NCBI GenBank assembly: GCA_963782555.1
Contig: CAWAKB010000002.1
Coordinates: 28,308 to 92,307, forward strand
Reading direction: 5' to 3'
Length of the DNA stretch: 64,000 bases
Source: an uncultured Alphaproteobacteria bacterium
Lineage (GTDB): Bacteria > Pseudomonadota > Alphaproteobacteria > Rhizobiales > Hyphomicrobiaceae
A program made the translations under genes and the position numbers. The notes below the pieces were generated by a model that saw only the letters and a list, made by a program, of their open reading frames with translations, was not told the origin of the DNA and made no database searches. Below, one piece after another: positions 3,424 through 47,080 of this stretch (the first letter of the stretch is position 1; every line of letters starts with the position of its first letter).

Positions 3424-4579
3424 CTAAACCGCTTCGAACAGCGCCGCCAGCCCCATGCCGCCCAGCACGCCGAGCGTCGCCACGCCGAGGCTGGCTTTGT
3501 CCTCGCCACGCGCCATGCGTGTGAACAGGCGGGCGACGAGCACCGCGCCGGCGGCGCCATAAGGATGTCCGCGCGCAATCGCGCCGCCGTCGGGGTTGAG
3601 GACGTCCTCGTCGAGCTCGAAGCTCTGCAAAAGCGCGATGGCCTGCGCGGCAGAGGATTTGCTCATCTCGATGACGCCGATGTCGGCCGGCTTGTAGCCA
3701 TTCATCCGCTCTTTGAGCTTCTTCATCGCCTCGATGGGAGCGTCCGCTTCCGCGTCGGGCGCCACGCCGCGCGCGGCCTGCGCGACAAGGCGCAGGGCGC
3801 GCGGCTTTCCAAGTGTGCTCCACAGACGCTCGGACACGACGACCGCCATCGCGCCGCCGTCGTGCATGGCACTCGTGTTGCCGGGTGTCAGCGTGCCGTC
3901 GGGCGAGAAATATGGCGCAAGCTGCGCCAGATCCTTGTAGTCGGGCTCGATGGCGCTTTGGTCGCGCGCCTCCTCGGCATTGGCGCGCAGCGGCACGATC
4001 TCGCCGACGAAACGGCGGCTGGTGCGGGCGGCCTCCGCCTTGAGGTGGGTGCGCAAGGCATAGGCGTCCTGCTGCGCGCGGCTGATCCCTAAGCGCGACG
4101 ACAGCGCCTCCGAGGATTCGATCAGAGGCGTGACCTCCTGCTCCTCGCTGGCGCTGGGCTCGAAGCTCATGAAGTGGGGCAGCTGATAGAGGCTGCGCGG
4201 CTTGGAGATGCGCCACGGCGCGGTCGACACCGAGTTCGGCGCCTCCGGCAAGGATGGCTTCGGCCTCGCCGAGAGCGACCCGGCGGATGGCCGACAGGAT
4301 TGCGTCGAGGCCGGAGCCGCACTGACGGTCGATGGTCGTCGCCGACACCGTCTCGGGCAGTCCGGCGGCGAGCGCGATAAGGCGAGCCGGGTTGCCGCCT
4401 TGAGAGGCGTTGCCGATGATGATCTCGTCGATCTGCCGCGGCTCGATCGCGCTATCTTGCAGCGCAGCAGCAATCAGCGGCGCGCACAATTGCTCGATGC
4501 GTCGCGCCTTGTGGAGGCCGCCAATGCGGCCAACCGCGGTCCGGCGGGCCGCGATGATATACGCTGGGACAGGGGGCAT
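3424..4579 (-). CDS. Thiolase-family protein with non-canonical active site; frameshift near 4235
   Basis: ARRTAVG start, DRQCGSG (Cys), GTLTPGN, GGAIARGHPYGAAG; N- and C-terminal parts in different frames. Confidence 0.85.
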
Positions 4580-39878: not shown

Positions 39879-41828
39879 TCACGCAGATACCTTCTGGTCC
39901 CCTTCCAACACTGCGTGCGCCTCTTCGGCGCGCTCGAAGACATGCGGTGCCACCCCGCGTTTGCGCAACGCCTCCTGCATCTTCAAGCGCATGAAGACGC
40001 TCGTGGTGTAGCGCGTCGTCGTCGCGTAGTGATGCTTCAACATGTACTCGATCATGCCGGCGTACTCGTCGTAGAGATCCTCGGCGATGCGGCAGCCGTC
40101 GTGATTGACGACCGCGTTGACGCGTCTTCCGGCCGCTTCGCACGCCTCGATTAGAACCTTGCGCAAATCGTCGATGTCGGTCTTCTTGCGTACGCTCCAG
40201 CCTTCCAGGTTGAGGAACAGAATATTGCGCTGGGCATCGTAGCTGACGCGCTCTGAAAGCGTGAGATTGAGAAGATCCGACAACAGGTCCATCGGCTCGT
40301 CGACAAAAATGCGCGGGTTCATCGCGATCGGCTTGTTTATGATCGGTTCGAAATCCATTTGCGCGAGCACGTCCCGCTCGACGTCGATGCCGGGTGCGAC
40401 CTCGATCAGCTCCAAACCGCCCGGTGTCAGCTGGAACACGCAGCGCTCAGTGACGTAGATCACGGGCTGCGATCGCTCGGCGGCAAACGTGCCGCTGAAC
40501 GTAATCTGCTCCACGTTTCGGATGAACTTGCGGACCTTACCTTCCTTGAGGATTTTGAGCTTGCCGTCCTCGATCGCGATGTCGAGCCCGCCAGCGGTGA
40601 ACGTGCCGGCGAACACCACCGCGCGCGCGTTCTGCGAGATGTCGATGAAGCCGCCACATCCATTTAGGCGTCCGCCGAATTTGCTGGTGTTGACGTTGCC
40701 CTGCGCGTCGCATTCCGCCATGCCCAGACAGGTGAGGTCGAGCCCCCCGCCATGGTAGAAATCAAACATCTGGTTTTGATCCATGATCGAATGGGCATTG
40801 GCAGAGGCCCCGAAGCTGGACCCACCCGCCAGGACGCCGCCGACGGCGCCCGCTTCCGTCGTCATGACGATGTAGTCGGTGACCTTCTCCTCGTTGGCGA
40901 CTGCGGCCACACCGTCGGGTGCTCCGACGCCTAGGTTGATCACGCCGTTGGGCGGGAGCTCGAATGCGGCGCGCCGGGCGATGATCTTGCGCTCGTCGAG
41001 CTTCATCTTCGGCATGCCTTCGACGGGGACCCGTACCTCGCCGGCGAGTGCGGGATCGTAGAGCACGCCGTAGTTCATGCGATGCATCTCGGGGGGATCA
41101 GCGACCACCACGCAGTCGACCAGGATGCCCGGCACCTTAACGTCCTTGGGCTTGAGCGAGCCCTGCGCGACGATGCGCTCGACCTGGGCAATGACGATGC
41201 CGCCGTTGTTGTGGGCAGCCATCGCCTGCGCCAGCACGTCGAGCGTGAGCGCCTCTTTCTCCATGCTGAGGTTTCCGGACGCGTCGGCGCTGGTCGCGCG
41301 GATCAGCGCCACATCGATGGGTGTCGCTTTGTAGAACAGCCACTCGCGCCCTTCGACCTCGACGAGCTTGACGAGATCCTCGGTCGTCGCCGCGTTGACC
41401 TTGCCGCCGCCTAAGCGCGGATCGACGTAGGTGTGCAGGCCGACCTTGGAGAAGAGGCCCGGCTGGCCCGAGGCGCACGTCCTGTAGAGCTTGGAGATGA
41501 TTCCTTGCGGCAGGTTGTATCCCTGAATTCTGCTTTCTTGGGCGGACTGCGCAACCTTGGGCATACGGCCGAAGTTGGCGGCTATGACGCGCCGCAAGAG
41601 ACCTTCGTGATGCAGGCGTCCGGTGCCCAGGCCCTTGCTGTCGCCGGCGCCGGCACACATGATGAGTGTGAGACCCTTGGGGGCGCCGGTCTCGACAAAG
41701 CGCGTCTCGAGGGCCGCATGCAGCGCCTCGGGAATGCAGCTTTGGACAAAGCCCGTTGTCGCCACGACGTCGTTCTCACGGATGAGGGCAACGGCTTCGC
41801 CCGCCGTGATCACCTTGTTGTTCAGCAT
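39879..41828 (-). CDS. Acyl-CoA:acetate/3-ketoacid (propionate) CoA-transferase with extra C-terminal domain
   Basis: DVALIRAT, NLGVGAP, TTEAGAVGG, FYHGGGLD, GGFIDISQNA, YVTERCVF. Confidence 0.9.
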   Translation of the reverse strand: MLNNKVITAGEAVALIRENDVVATTGFVQSCIPEALHAALETRFVETGAPKGLTLIMCAGAGDSKGLGTGRLHHEGLLRRVIAANFGRMPKVAQSAQESRIQGYNLPQGIISKLYRTCASGQPGLFSKVGLHTYVDPRLGGGKVNAATTEDLVKLVEVEGREWLFYKATPIDVALIRATSADASGNLSMEKEALTLDVLAQAMAAHNNGGIVIAQVERIVAQGSLKPKDVKVPGILVDCVVVADPPEMHRMNYGVLYDPALAGEVRVPVEGMPKMKLDERKIIARRAAFELPPNGVINLGVGAPDGVAAVANEEKVTDYIVMTTEAGAVGGVLAGGSSFGASANAHSIMDQNQMFDFYHGGGLDLTCLGMAECDAQGNVNTSKFGGRLNGCGGFIDISQNARAVVFAGTFTAGGLDIAIEDGKLKILKEGKVRKFIRNVEQITFSGTFAAERSQPVIYVTERCVFQLTPGGLELIEVAPGIDVERDVLAQMDFEPIINKPIAMNPRIFVDEPMDLLSDLLNLTLSERVSYDAQRNILFLNLEGWSVRKKTDIDDLRKVLIEACEAAGRRVNAVVNHDGCRIAEDLYDEYAGMIEYMLKHHYATTTRYTTSVFMRLKMQEALRKRGVAPHVFERAEEAHAVLEGDQKVSA

Positions 41829-42110
41829 CTCGCGTTTCCTCTGATCCTCCACTGTTTGACCCCGGTGCGAGAAGGGTCCCGTGGAGGTTTATCGGTCGAA
41901 TGCTCTTCTTGAGAAGAGGAGGGTATGAAGCACGTCGCGGCCAGCTTCGCCACCGATCGCTGCTCAATCAGCCCCCTTCGAGCCGATGTTGCCACCTGAG
42001 CCTCAGGTCTGCGATAGGGCGCGAGCGCGCAGTCCGGCACCGGACCGCCCGAAAACAGGGGGAATGATTGGGATGCCGGCTCCGCGCCGATCGGGGCAGC
42101 GCGACCCGGA

Positions 42111-43301
42111 TCAGGCAGCTTGCGCGGCGGGCGCGGGCGCCGGGGCGACACGGCGGCGCTCGATCTTGAAGCGCTCGGGCCGCTCATAGAGGAAGCGGGC
42201 CCACGTGTTGCGTACGAGCGCATGCAGGGTCAGCGGCACCGCGACCGCTACGGCGGTGACAATGAGCGAGACCACGTCCACATCGTCGATGAGCCCCGTC
42301 TTCAACAGGACGATGCGTGTCGCCGCCATCGGCAGCACGAACGAAACATAGAGCACGATGGAGTTGCGTCCGGCGTAGCGTACGAAGCGCGCAGCGTCCA
42401 GCCGCGACAGCAGCGAGGCGGCCGTCACCACCGCGATGGCGCCGATGAGACCGAAGGCGATGCGCAGTATAGGAACCTGCGCGAACGTTTCGATCCCGGG
42501 CAGGCCCGACGGCTCGAAGGCGATAACGCTGTTGAACACGAACCAAGCCGACAAGCCGATCATGGCAAGGCCCGCATTCTCGCGCGCCCAGGCTGCGAGC
42601 TGGAACACCTTGGGTGCGAGCATGTAGCCCGTCAGGAAGAACACGAAGTAGTGCGCGCCGTAGTCGTCGATGGCTTCCCAGCCGGTGTGCATAGGAAATG
42701 TCTGCATGGCCGCGGCTGCGAGCCACAGGGCCCAATTGGGCAGGCCGAGCGCGCGTGCGAGCTTGGTCACCACGAAGAACAGCGGCAGGACGTAGATGAA
42801 CCACAGGTTCGGGTTGGGGCCGATGAAGGCGTAAGCGAACTCGGCGAGCCAGGCCTGCGGGTCGGACACCAGCAGTGGCGCCTGCTTGACCGTCATCAGG
42901 ATGACGAGCCAGAGCACGTAGAAATAGCCGAAATGCACCACCTTGCGGTCGAGGTAGGTGCGCCAGTCGCGGTCGATGACGCGGAAGAGAAAGAGGCCCG
43001 ACAGGAGATAGAAGTCAGGCATGCGGAAGGGCTTGGCGAAGGCGACGACCCAATGCATGAAGCCGTCCTGGCCCATGGCGTTGCCCACGCCCAGCGTCGA
43101 ATGCATCATGACGACGAGGATGATGCAGATGCCCTTGGCGTAGTCGAACCAGACGACGCGATCGTTTGCGCCGGCCATCCAGGGTGCCACAGGTGCGGCC
43201 GGCACAGGCGCGGCGCTCGAGTCGGCGCGCAGGTGTGCGCGCAAGGAGCCCCACGTCTCATGCCGGGACAGGCGCTCTTTGGGCGTCGCACTCTGGGACA
43301 T
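42111..43301 (-). CDS. Acyltransferase family 3 membrane protein
   Basis: [35 protein letters not shown]. Confidence 0.88.
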
Positions 43302-43480
43302 CGAAGACCTCTTGGGCGGGGAATGGACCGCGTATGAAGGTCAATCCCGCAAGAGTGAGGCCAAGACTGAGGACGATGGGGCGCAAGAGGATGCCGGGAA
43401 AATCGCGTGCGGACGGTTTGCGGGCCTGCAGCGGATGGGGTATCAAGTGCGGCCTGGGGAGTCTTGTGGCGACCCGTTAA

Positions 43481-43557
<77 letters not shown>

Positions 43558-43839
43558 GCGGGCCTTTCGGGCCGCTGCGTATCCGATTTCAAATCGCGGG
43601 TTGGGCGAAACAAAGAGGACCTCAGCATCCGCTCCAACCAGAAGCGGTCGCTTGAGCCCGCGCGCTGCCTAATGAGCGTGCGTTATCTCGATCACGCTAT
43701 CGCAGATACTATTCGCTCAAATATTTCAATCCAATGTTCAGTCCCGTCCGCTAGCCTTCATGCTGGTCTGGGCTTCCTTGAGAGCTTCCGACAATCCGGC
43801 TAACGCGTATTGAGGTTCAACAAGGGGCCCCCAAAAGAC

Positions 43840-44520
43840 ATGCCATTCATCGAGGCGAAGCCGTTCCCGTTTCAGTTCGATTTCGATCACGCCGCTCTCA
43901 TCTGCATCGATATGCAGCGGGATTTCTGCCTGCCGGGCGGCTTTGCCGAATCCCTGGGCGACCACATCGAGAACGTTCAGCCCTGCATTCCGGTCATCGC
44001 CAAGCTGCAAGCCGCCTTTCGCAGGTGCAGGCTGCCGATCATCCACACGAAGGAATGTCACAAGCCGGATCTCTCCGACCTTCCCGCTGCCAAGCTCAAC
44101 CGCGGCAACCCGAAGCGAAAGATCGGTGAGCCTGGACCGATGGGCCGGATACTCATCGATGGTGAACCAGGGACGGACTTCATCCCCGAGAACGAGCCTT
44201 GGCTATACGAGCACGTCATCAGCAAACCGGGCAAGGACGCGTTCTACGCCACCGACCTCGACGAGTATCTGATGCGGCGGAAGATCAGCGGATTGGTGAT
44301 CACGGGCGTGACGACCGAGGTCTGCGTGCAGACGACCATGCGTTGTGCCAACGACCGCGGCTACGACTGCCTCCTGGTCGAGGACGGCACCGACAGCTAT
44401 TTCCCCGAGTTCAAGGAGGTCACGCTGAGATCATTGGTAGCGCAGGGCGCCATCGTCGGCTGGACGTGCAAGTCCGACGCCGTCCTCAGCGTGTTGGCCA
44501 AGGAGCGTGGACAGGTGTGA
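43840..44520 (+). CDS. trtA: Isochorismatase-like cysteine hydrolase, triuret hydrolase (TrtA)-like
   Basis: IDMQRDF, GGFAESLG, RGNP, IGEPGPMGRIL, KPGK, TTEVCVQT, DSYFP, QGAIVGW. Confidence 0.7.
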   Translation: MPFIEAKPFPFQFDFDHAALICIDMQRDFCLPGGFAESLGDHIENVQPCIPVIAKLQAAFRRCRLPIIHTKECHKPDLSDLPAAKLNRGNPKRKIGEPGPMGRILIDGEPGTDFIPENEPWLYEHVISKPGKDAFYATDLDEYLMRRKISGLVITGVTTEVCVQTTMRCANDRGYDCLLVEDGTDSYFPEFKEVTLRSLVAQGAIVGWTCKSDAVLSVLAKERGQV

Positions 44521-44593
44521 CGCGCGCCTCACTTCTTGAGGTGGTGATTACCGCCTTGTCGGCCGCGGCGGGCGGATGGCATGGAGCCTGTAG

Positions 44594-45562
44594 ATGAAAC
44601 CGCCCGTCGACTACATCTTCCCTCCGGTCGAAACGGGCCGCGTTCCCTACTGGCGGCTCGTCTTGCGCGGCTGCTCGCAGCTTTGCTTTCAGAGCAACGA
44701 GCTGACGGGCTTGTTGTTCCTGGCGGCGGTTTTCGTCGCTTCACCGATCAGCGCGGCCTACTTGCTTGTTGCCGGCATCCTAGCGCCGGCCGGACGCATG
44801 CTGTTCGGCGAGCCCAAGGATATCGTGGAGAGCGGTCTGCCTAGCCTCAACCCGGGCCTAATCGCGCTGGCCCTGCCGGCCTTCTTTCATACCGGGTGGT
44901 CGAACGTCGGCATGTGGGGCGTGCTCGTCGCCGGCATCGTCGTCACTAGCCTGCTGGTGAGCCTGCTGCTGACGTTCGTACCGTTTCCGATCTCGGCGTT
45001 TCCGTTCCTGCTTGTCTTCTGGGCGCTTTCCGCGCTCGCCCCGCACACAGATGTCTTGCAGCCGATAACTCACACGCCGATCGACTTTACATTTCATCCA
45101 CTCGTTGCCGTATTGCGCAGTCTCGGCCAAGCACTGTTCTCACCCAGCATCTGGTCGGGCGTTCTGTTTCTCATCGGCGTACTGCTGAGCAACTGGCGCC
45201 ACGGCGTCATCGCTCTCATGGGCGCCGTGATCGGCACGCTGGTCTCCTACTATTACCGCGACGTCGATGCTGGGAGCGTCAATCTAGGCCTCTATGGGTT
45301 CAACGGTGTCCTGAGCGCCGTATCGGTCTTCGTCATTTGCGGCGGCCAGTTGCGGCTCGCCATCCTCGGCGCGCTTATCGCCACCATCCTAACACCGGCG
45401 ATTGCCGACCTCGGCCTGCTGACGCTCGCAGCGCCATTTGTCTTCACAGCCTGGCTCATGCTCGCCCTAGGCTGGGTCGGAGACAATTGGTTCGATGAGC
45501 CGCCCGCACGTGTTGCAGCGGCGGATGCTGCCACACAACCTTCGCATAGCCGAGGAGAGTGA
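44594..45562 (+). CDS. Urea transporter (UT) family protein
   Basis: LRGCSQLCFQSN and LRSLGQALFSP internal repeats, LGLYGFNGVL; multi-TM. Confidence 0.85.
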   Translation: MKPPVDYIFPPVETGRVPYWRLVLRGCSQLCFQSNELTGLLFLAAVFVASPISAAYLLVAGILAPAGRMLFGEPKDIVESGLPSLNPGLIALALPAFFHTGWSNVGMWGVLVAGIVVTSLLVSLLLTFVPFPISAFPFLLVFWALSALAPHTDVLQPITHTPIDFTFHPLVAVLRSLGQALFSPSIWSGVLFLIGVLLSNWRHGVIALMGAVIGTLVSYYYRDVDAGSVNLGLYGFNGVLSAVSVFVICGGQLRLAILGALIATILTPAIADLGLLTLAAPFVFTAWLMLALGWVGDNWFDEPPARVAAADAATQPSHSRGE

Positions 45563-45565
45563 TCC

Positions 45566-45934
45566 ATGTCCGAACAGGCCGCTTCGATCGTGCTGCCCGC
45601 TCTTATGGAGTACGCGACCAAGCTGCGTCATACCGAAGGCTGGGAGCAGTTCCGTCCGGGCGTGACCGCACGCTGGTTGTACGGAGACTTTCATGCCGGA
45701 CCCTCGGCGGTGCTGCTGCGCTACGAGCCCGGTGCGCGCGTCGCCGAGCACGAACACGTCGGCTACGAGCACATGCTCGTCCTCGACGGCGACCAGTTCG
45801 ACGAGCACGGCACGTACCCAGCCGGCAGCTTCGTCATCAATCCGCCTGGCACGCGGCACTCTCCGGGCAGCAAGAGTGGCTGCGTCGCGCTTCTGATCTA
45901 TGAGAAGCCCGTACGCTTCGTCGCGCCAGAATAG
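45566..45934 (+). CDS. ChrR-like cupin protein
   Basis: LLRYEPGARVAEHEHVGYEHMLVLDG, NPPGTRHSP. Confidence 0.85.
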   Translation: MSEQAASIVLPALMEYATKLRHTEGWEQFRPGVTARWLYGDFHAGPSAVLLRYEPGARVAEHEHVGYEHMLVLDGDQFDEHGTYPAGSFVINPPGTRHSPGSKSGCVALLIYEKPVRFVAPE

Positions 45935-46079
45935 TCTTGAGGCGCTCAAGTTCGAGCCCAATCTAGGGGTCTAGCTCGAGGGCTTGGGACTACTCGCGAA
46001 GCTCGGCTTCGAGGCCTTCCAACGCACCACTTGGGTGCGCCAGAAGGAACTAACTTCGTTACCTCGTATCGGCTGTCAA

Positions 46080-46385
46080 TCAGGCAGCCTTTGTCTCGGC
46101 CGGGTCGTCGCGGATGATGACCGTGCTGACGACCGGAAAAATCTGATCGCCAGGCATGCCGACGCACCGCGCGTGCTCGCGGATCGATTGAGGATCGCGC
46201 GCCTCATAGATGCAGACCGTCCCGATGCGGCCGTTGGGCTCCTCGACCACATAGCTGCGGATCCAGCGGACACGGTCGGGCAACTCCTCGTTGCCGATCC
46301 GGGCCGACTTGGCTCCGGCGGCTTCGAGCTCTTGCATATCCGCCCAGGCGCTCGGGCGGCGAACGCCGTAGAGATCCAAGCGCAC
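46080..46385 (-). CDS. DUF4242 family protein, copy 2 (TTG where copy 1 has ATG)
   Basis: WIRSYV, GTVCIYEA, IREHARCVGMP; near-identical to 46781-47080. Confidence 0.75.
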   Translation of the reverse strand: MRLDLYGVRRPSAWADMQELEAAGAKSARIGNEELPDRVRWIRSYVVEEPNGRIGTVCIYEARDPQSIREHARCVGMPGDQIFPVVSTVIIRDDPAETKAA

Positions 46386-46460
46386 CTACATGAACGCCTC
46401 TGGAACCGGCAGCGTCGGGCCAAAAGCAGAAGCGCAGGTGGCCTCGCCAGCCGGCGCCGT

Positions 46461-46685
46461 CTATTGCCGACGCAGAAACTTGAGACCGGCCTCGGTCACC
46501 ACCACTTGATCGCCTTCGCCAGGCACGCCTCGGCGCTCGACGAAGCCACGGTCCGTCGCATCCTCCCACACTGTCAGTCGCGGGCAGGATGTGCGCCACA
46601 CCTCGATGACCTCGGAATAGGCGCGCGGCTCCTTTGCGACCCATTCGATGAGATCGCGCACGAGAGGATCAAGCGTGTCGGCCAT
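46461..46685 (-). CDS. Small conserved hypothetical protein (WRTSCPRL motif, winged-helix-like)
   Basis: GGAG SD; LIEWV...YSEVIEVWRTSCPRLTVWEDA...VTEAG. Confidence 0.75.
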   Translation of the reverse strand: MADTLDPLVRDLIEWVAKEPRAYSEVIEVWRTSCPRLTVWEDATDRGFVERRGVPGEGDQVVVTEAGLKFLRRQ

Positions 46686-46780
46686 CTGGACACTCCTGGC
46701 AACTTCGGCGAGCCGCGTACCAACGGCAGAATAGCGTCGAAGTGTCGCTCAGAATTGGACAGGCCGTGGCCGGCTTTCAA

Positions 46781-47080
46781 TCAGGCGGCCTTTGTCTCGG
46801 CCGGGTCGTCGCGGATGATGACCGTGCTGACGACCGGGAAAATCTGGTCGCCCGGCATGCCGACGCGCCGCGCATGCGCACGGATCAATTCGGGATCCCG
46901 CGCCTCATAGACGCAGAACGTCCCGATGCGGCCGTCCGGCTCCTCGACCACGTAGCTGCGGATCCAGCGGACCCGGTCGGGCATCTCCTCGTTGCCGATC
47001 CGGGCCGACTTGGCTCCGGCGGCTTCGAGCTCCTGCATATCCGCCCAGGCACTCGGGCGGCGAACGACGTAGAGATCCAT
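46781..47080 (-). CDS. DUF4242 family protein, copy 1
   Basis: AGGAG SD; WIRSYV, GTFCVYEA, IRAHARRVGMP. Confidence 0.85.
   Translation of the reverse strand: MDLYVVRRPSAWADMQELEAAGAKSARIGNEEMPDRVRWIRSYVVEEPDGRIGTFCVYEARDPELIRAHARRVGMPGDQIFPVVSTVIIRDDPAETKAA

Follow-up and report, generated by a model that had tools for sequence, protein, structure and literature searches.

A putative mobile ureide-scavenging cassette of a TrtA-type hydrolase, a divergent UT-family channel and a Cupin_7 metalloprotein, recurring in four bacterial phyla

Triuret and biuret occur as impurities in fertilizer and have been suggested as slow-release sources of nitrogen, so it is of practical relevance which soil and water organisms use them. 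Their catabolism was described in 2018-2021 and, to our knowledge, always as the combined work of TrtA, BiuH, and AtzF; TrtB, a small protein that co-occurs with trtA, was reportedly identified as a carboxybiuret decarboxylase by Aukema et al. in 2020. TrtA hydrolyzes triuret to carboxybiuret and ammonia with a kcat/KM near 1e5 M-1 s-1. Clusters of trtA, biuH, and atzF, by which all four nitrogens of triuret are released, are found in Herbaspirillum and Rhizobium. Here, we describe a three-gene cassette in a 64,000-nucleotide (nt) stretch of the genome of an uncultured alphaproteobacterium of the family Hyphomicrobiaceae (assembly GCA_963782555.1, contig CAWAKB010000002.1, positions 28,308 to 92,307; this whole stretch is referred to as the window). 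The cassette encodes an isochorismatase-like cysteine hydrolase of TrtA type, a channel of the UT family (urea-transporter fold), and a Cupin_7 protein (Table 1), and it differs from the described clusters in lacking biuH, atzF, and an ATP-binding cassette (ABC) importer and in carrying a UT gene instead. From sequence comparison, and with modest confidence, we read it as a horizontally transferred unit that obtains nitrogen by scavenging triuret or a closely similar linear acyl-ureide.

The hydrolase has its fold, catalytic triad, V-T motif, and substrate contacts in common with TrtA of Herbaspirillum sp. BH-1 (6XIX/6XJE; PMC7948467). It is ~52% identical to 6XIX and ~58% identical to rhizobial TrtA, and belongs to a separate subclade. 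BiuH of Rhizobium leguminosarum 3841 (6AZO) is homologous as well, with the same catalytic machinery and ~46% identity, but falls into another clade, and none of the BiuH-type residues (Y35, Y41, D160, T187, and V205) is present in the window hydrolase. Against the PDB, TrtA 6XIX scored highest (239 bits), ahead of Rhodococcus BiuH (RhdBiuH, 186 bits), Rhizobium BiuH (183 bits), and RutB (69 bits), and the match to the NCBIfam BiuH equivalog NF050097 (219 bits) was under the curated cut-off of 370.

Residues were mapped from the TrtA paper (PMC7948467), the window number being the paper number plus 10. By alignment, D34, K139, and C172 correspond to the TrtA triad D24, K129, and C162; V167-T168 aligns, at the sequence level, with the cis-peptide motif V157-T158; and E82, K142, and Q212 occupy the places of the substrate-contact residues E72, K132, and Q202. 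Throughout the subclade, the TrtA catalytic and ligand-contact set (D24, E72, K129, K132, T158, C162, Q202, and F29) is kept. At five of the six positions that discriminate TrtA from BiuH, the window enzyme has the TrtA residue (F35, A134, E160, Y187, and I205 in paper numbering, with F45, E170, Y197, and I215 in window numbering). The sixth, the N41 position, is occupied by D51 (SLGDH), neither the Asn of TrtA nor the Tyr of BiuH; Asn is found there in 20 of the 26 members of the subclade. The original prediction, that every discriminating motif carries the TrtA-type residue, thus holds for GGF, TEVC, SYFP, and GxIVG, as well as for A134, but fails for SLG. All first-shell substrate residues are intact, including Q202 and I205, which argues for a ureide of triuret length over a very different substrate, and against urea itself.

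Three further motifs had been singled out as unusual, and two of them proved to be so: KPGKD (G133D; window D143) is present in 26/26 and MRCAND (E169C; window C179) in 24/26 subclade members, while neither was found among 121 canonical TrtA and BiuH sequences, which makes them genuine subclade signatures. HTKECH is only weakly distinctive, since its Cys occurs in 57/60 canonical TrtA sequences and its Lys in 10/60.

A database search returned many proteins 73-92% identical to the window hydrolase, far nearer than TrtA, with close homologs from Methylocystis, Pirellulales, Mycobacterium, Chlamydiales, a planctomycete, and Hoeflea; the subclade spans Alphaproteobacteria, Actinomycetota, Chlamydiota, and Planctomycetota. 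When one genome per species was scanned, 80 hydrolase loci were obtained, and these split sharply into clade A (window type; 20 loci, 74-92% identical to the window hydrolase) and clade B (canonical TrtA; the rest, 57-62%, from Rhizobium, Allorhizobium, Ensifer, Reyranella, and others). Searching representatives at 50% identity brought up largely fragmentary and tandem or fused proteins, which were used as outgroups only. A careful IQ-TREE search grouped clade A, clade B, and 6XIX into one clade against BiuH (support 100/100), placing the window hydrolase on the TrtA side and inside the TrtA/BiuH clade to which it had originally been assigned. Clade A was monophyletic (100/100), and the approximately unbiased (AU) test did not discriminate between nesting within clade B and a sister position (p = 0.31). 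Mean identity is 78% in clade A despite its four phyla, 70% in clade B, and 58% between the two. The stem branch of clade A is long (0.53 in a quick tree), and clades A and B are fixed for different residues at seven positions (G36A, I49C, R94K, G133D, E169C, E185D, and M198A), four of them adjoining the specificity elements F35, K132, Y187, and the helix before Q202.

The three genes are closely spaced and co-directional on the forward strand, as first noted, with 73 nt between the hydrolase and UT genes and 3 nt between the UT and cupin genes. The order hydrolase-UT-cupin is found in ~20 of 27 clade A loci, in Planctomycetota, Chlamydiota, Actinomycetota, and Alphaproteobacteria; such recurrence in four phyla indicates that the arrangement is not due to chance. 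Carriers available in culture include Microbaculum marinum KCTC 52363, Methyloceanibacter marginalis R-67177, Mycolicibacterium palauense CECT 8779, and the planctomycete Pan216. In four clade A loci (L002, L014, L022, and L025), hydrolase and cupin genes occur without UT. UT and cupin are encoded in a single open reading frame (ORF) in Methylocystis (two independent assemblies), two metagenome-assembled genomes of Actinomycetota, and Mycobacterium pinniadriaticum (loci L005/L006, L019, L023, and L024), that is, in two phyla. The searchable literature contained no description of a urea transporter combined with an isochorismatase and a cupin, and together with the conserved gene order this bears out the view that the three genes form an undescribed module.

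The canonical loci of clade B are organized differently. A BiuH paralog lies ~2.2 kb upstream of the hydrolase gene in 55 of 60 of them, and none has UT, while a homolog of the same cupin (39-59% identity) is located directly 3′ of trtA in about three quarters; rhizobial trtA operons mostly have this Cupin_7 gene directly 3′, as the window does. For instance, the order in Rhizobium lusitanum is two ABC permeases, BiuH, ABC ATPase, TrtA, and cupin, and the canonical operon at locus L084 includes a BMP-type ABC importer system. Since clade B operons carry an importer where clade A has UT, the channel fills the importer's slot of the canonical operon. Fourteen canonical trtA loci without the cupin were checked for a recurrent small substitute gene, as expected if TrtB displaced it, and none was found; the operon ends there. 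In three clade A loci, namely two planctomycete loci and the Chlamydiales, OprB-type porin genes are located directly upstream on the same strand (L003, 3913-5406; L007, 4622-5878; L028, ~3426-4397), and these porins are candidate outer-membrane entry routes for the cassette's substrate.

The nearest relatives of the window cassette (89-92% identical) have a five-gene version, which adds BiuH and a stand-alone C-terminal domain of allophanate hydrolase (AH_C). The appended genes are compatible with biuret as the hydrolase product. The stand-alone AH_C protein (PF21986/GGACT, ~125 amino acids [aa]) follows BiuH without an amidase domain (L119, 10918-11295; L120, 6790-7173), is found in L009, L017, and L028 too, and may decarboxylate allophanate or carboxybiuret. 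In one five-gene relative (L120), an ammonium transporter gene is located upstream. At the DNA level, the match to the nearest relative (90% identity) covers positions 43838-45921 only, with unrelated flanks. It begins 2 nt 5′ of the hydrolase start codon, suggesting that the transferred block came without a promoter of its own. No UT gene was found, within the phylum sample, in the listed genomes of the window's order. The conserved order, the confined DNA match, and the lack of UT in those genomes together suggest that the three genes are the transferable unit and that the locus is, as judged from these alignments, a compact cassette that has moved between very different bacteria.

The host genome, which is 98.4% complete, contains no BiuH above the cut-off, no allophanate hydrolase, no AH_C domain, no urease alpha subunit, and no urea carboxylase. 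The original statement that neither biuH nor an allophanate hydrolase gene is adjacent to the cassette is therefore correct and extends to the whole genome. Among 21 clade A genomes, a true BiuH (above cut-off) is present in 8, a urease alpha subunit in 11, and an allophanate hydrolase (above cut-off) in 3; at least six, including both Chlamydiales, lack BiuH, urease, and AtzF altogether. Without urease, urea carboxylase, or allophanate hydrolase, the UT protein feeds no known urea-degrading enzyme in this host. As no known biuret-degrading enzyme is encoded there either, this "urea channel" probably serves the triuret-type hydrolase instead.

The UT protein matches positions 2-290 of the 292 of PF03253, with 140 bits against a cut-off of 25, but scores 118 bits, below the cut-off of 274.6, against TIGR03441, the equivalog for the characterized bacterial urea transporter Yut, and 71 bits against dvUT of Desulfovibrio vulgaris (3K3F). 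Both pore-helix N-x-x-L motifs of dvUT and Yut are kept, whereas LYGFN is intact in the second half only, the first half reading LPSLN; identity to other proteobacterial UTs sampled is ~27-30%. The channel's partner is a cysteine hydrolase, not urease, and in relatives it is sometimes fused to the cupin. The selectivity-filter positions of dvUT, including the Sm threonines T130 and T294, have been defined (PMC4357013), and in the human channel UT-A2, Ala at the equivalent threonines lowers urea transport (PMC11589576). The window pore differs from dvUT by F80L, T130A, T294A, V25L, and E187Q, while the clade A UTs retain Q24, F27, L84, F190, F243, and L247. At F80, all 22 clade A UTs have Leu, whereas the ten other proteobacterial UTs used for comparison have Tyr or Phe; at T130, 21 of 22 have Ala or Val (Ala in the window), versus Ser or Thr in 10/10 others; and at T294, Ser (18), Ala (3), and Cys (1) are found, with Ala in the window. 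These filter changes are compatible with an altered permeant in the clade A channels. Many UT-family genes at L092-L118, in ~2-Mb genomes from one family of the same phylum, are in frames of ~720-760 aa; these long frames join UT, with Ser at T130 and Ala at T294, to a second domain of ~400 aa.

The cupin is modeled by AlphaFold2 as a single barrel (predicted local distance difference test score 92). Both cupin motifs, H62-x-H64-x3-E68 and P-x-G-x2-H98, are present, and the 3His-1Glu ligands H62, H64, E68, and H98 are invariant in 71 clade A and clade B orthologs, as are R30, Y53, D79, E80, Y84, and C106. ChrR (2Q1Z, 2Z2S) and the uncharacterized protein 3O14 head the Foldseek list, which otherwise consists of generic small metal cupins, and the best PDB sequence match is 3O14 (72 bits). 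The description of this protein as ChrR-like is apt for the Cupin_7 fold but not beyond it: the match to TIGR02451 (ChrR) is 55 bits, below the cut-off of 124.5, and covers positions 90-202 only, the C-terminal cupin part; the zinc-binding anti-sigma domain of ChrR is absent; and typing of the genes around the cassette (39.9-48.0 kb) revealed no sigma factor. Across an unbiased set of 401 genomes from the class, orthologs of the cupin scored at least 122 bits and were followed, after a gap, by Cupin_7 proteins at 87 bits or less. All 13 orthologs are located directly 3′ of a hydrolase of this kind (12 of TrtA type, and one 42% identical), as opposed to 0/17 lower-scoring loci, which marks the cupin as a dedicated partner of TrtA-type enzymes, whatever the transporter.

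The decarboxylase role that we propose for the cupin is the one ascribed to TrtB, but by family description the two are not homologous, the window protein being a metal-binding cupin. According to the legend of Fig. S11 of PMC12625717, TrtB is aligned with AtzH and HpxZ as one family. The possibility that the cupin is TrtB itself was accordingly rejected on this family description, which makes TrtB an AtzH/HpxZ homolog and sets it apart from Cupin_7.

A mechanism consistent with these features can be proposed. The UT channel would pass a planar ureide across the inner membrane by diffusion, with an upstream OprB-type porin serving the outer membrane in some relatives. In the cytoplasm, the TrtA-subclade hydrolase (Asp-Lys-Cys) would deamidate a terminal carbamoyl group to NH3 and an N-carboxy product, which would be carboxybiuret if the substrate is triuret; carboxybiuret decays spontaneously with a half-life of ~20 min. 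Because hydrolysis is irreversible, net flux through a passive channel would be inward, as for pairs of urea channel and urease. The Cupin_7 metalloprotein may be located at or near the cytoplasmic side of the channel, where it would process a pathway metabolite; its likeliest role would be decarboxylation of the N-carboxy product, making it a nonhomologous counterpart of TrtB. The host would harvest the first ammonia only, and the remaining biuret would leave the cell, possibly through the same channel. More tentatively, and rather doubtfully at present, this UT subfamily could be the first to have a urea oligomer (triuret or biuret) as its physiological permeant, operating in a channel-enzyme assembly with a docked or fused cupin and a remodeled TrtA as a self-sufficient mobile nitrogen-mining unit. 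Crystalline triuret has been reported in amoebae, as stated in PMC7948467, and the presence of the cassette in Chlamydiales (genomes of 1.9-2.6 Mb) and mycobacteria may reflect triuret use there.

Several observations weigh against triuret scavenging. The cassette is strongly conserved, yet 13 of 21 subclade genomes have no true BiuH, without which just one of triuret's four nitrogens is released, a poor yield. The window enzyme has Asp where TrtA requires N41, and the N41Y mutant of TrtA retains <10% activity (PMC7948467). The long stem and the seven fixed changes, several of them adjacent to the active site (G36A, G133D, E185D, and M198A), could reflect a shift in function. About a quarter of the canonical trtA loci have no cupin gene; other bacterial UTs likewise vary at several filter positions, including T294; and we know of UT channels for urea and small analogs only. 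The poor yield, the stem branch, and the second-shell changes leave room for a shifted or broadened substrate range. The same architecture might thus act on a different substrate, such as formylurea, another N-acylurea, or a charged analog, or the enzyme might be a triuret-plus-biuret generalist, in which case three genes would suffice without BiuH; we regard this as a serious but less than likely option. It would explain the fixed changes beside F35, K132, Y187, and the Q202 loop, the invariant new Asp directly after the substrate-binding Lys, and the occurrence of the cassette mostly in genomes without BiuH or AtzF. In addition, formylurea is the second-best substrate of TrtA, and generalist properties may be favored where an organism has just one enzyme of the family (PMC7948467). 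On the other hand, all triuret-binding first-shell residues are kept, including Q202, which contacts the distal amide, and I205, which holds the "triuret" position; BiuH lies directly beside some cassettes; and G133D, E169C, and R71K could be charge-compensating structural rewiring that leaves specificity unaffected. The same pocket makes it very improbable that the cassette is a nickel-independent urea hydrolase pair, in which urea enters through UT and is cleaved by the cysteine hydrolase. A UT gene in a genome without urease or urea carboxylase, and the absence of urease from 10/21 carriers, could be taken that way, but with urease in 11/21 carriers there is no anticorrelation, and the distal-amide pocket (Q202, I205, Y187, and F35) is kept and enlarged by M198A, not filled as a urea-sized substrate needs. 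Moreover, urea is far less activated than acyl-ureas.

The roles assigned to the other two proteins in the triuret-scavenging model can be questioned as well. Instead of importing the substrate, which would enter otherwise, UT might be an exit valve for urea or biuret that a cell without urease and BiuH cannot use. UT proteins are a family of urea channels, channels conduct both ways, and the amidase half of allophanate hydrolase is absent from the five-gene relatives (TrtA-like, UT, cupin, BiuH, and AH_C), so that their pathway plausibly ends at urea; one genome with this version (G001) has no urease. However, the upstream porin genes suggest import, the transporter's position in canonical operons is taken by importers, and urea and similar small molecules escape from cells of bacterial size in seconds even if no channel is present, while uptake of micromolar substrate gains much from one; we consider an exit valve unlikely. 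Slightly less unlikely, though still improbable, is a nonenzymatic cupin, acting either as a ligand sensor or gate of the channel or as a metal-dependent binder that hands the substrate to the hydrolase. The cupin is fused to the UT C-terminus in two phyla, the ChrR sensor cupin domain, part of an anti-sigma factor, is among its nearest structures, and biuret-type ligands chelate transition metals. Its role is not UT-specific, however, as members of this orthogroup also sit beside trtA in operons that have ABC importers and lack UT, and the invariant residues beyond the metal ligands (R30, Y53, D79, E80, Y84, and C106) resemble an active site.

If the triuret-scavenging model is right, a BiuH-independent version of the pathway with its own channel exists in four phyla, and the pathway would be more modular and more widespread than published. 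The UT family would gain a non-urease partner, along with the testable idea that UT-fold channels conduct urea oligomers, and the small metal cupin, tied strictly to TrtA-type enzymes, becomes a target for enzymology.

Table 1. Cassette genes and neighboring features, in window coordinates
Feature	Position	Strand	Details
CoA-transferase	39879-41852	-	657 aa; top NCBIfam match staphylococcal FadX, 448 bits, below cut-off of 750
tRNA-Arg(CCG)	43481..43557	+	ARAGORN; Rfam tRNA, 72 bits
TrtA-subclade isochorismatase-like cysteine hydrolase	43840..44520	+	226 aa from ATG; Pfam PF00857, 137 bits, 8e-40
UT-family (urea-transporter fold) channel, divergent subfamily	44594..45562	+	322 aa; Pfam PF03253, 140 bits, 1e-40
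Single-domain Cupin_7 metalloprotein	45566..45934	+	122 aa; Pfam PF12973, 72 bits, 4e-20
Direct repeat	46070-47080		300 nt, 92% identity, 701 nt apart
SCO4226-like gene	46080-46385	-	PF14026, "nickel responsive"
ORF without family match	46461-46685		74 aa
SCO4226-like gene	46781-47080	-	PF14026, "nickel responsive"

The hydrolase start was set at ATG 43840, matching the MPFIEAKPF of its homologs, while the mechanical ORF opens at TTG 43810. An Rfam scan of 43000-46500 gave the tRNA only and no riboswitch, such as one for guanidine; a promoter scan gave no match, and terminator-like matches were weak. The tRNA-Arg(CCG) gene is co-directional with the cassette and 282 nt 5′ of it, making it a possible landing site for incoming DNA; no second copy of its 3′ end that would mark island boundaries was found within the window. 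The flanking genes are unrelated to the cassette: upstream lies a gene for an Acyl_transf_3 protein; downstream, on the opposite strand, are a methyltransferase gene and two SCO4226-like genes. The CoA-transferase is likewise unrelated to it. The two SCO4226-like genes are paralogs that sit in the direct repeat, with the 74-aa ORF between them.

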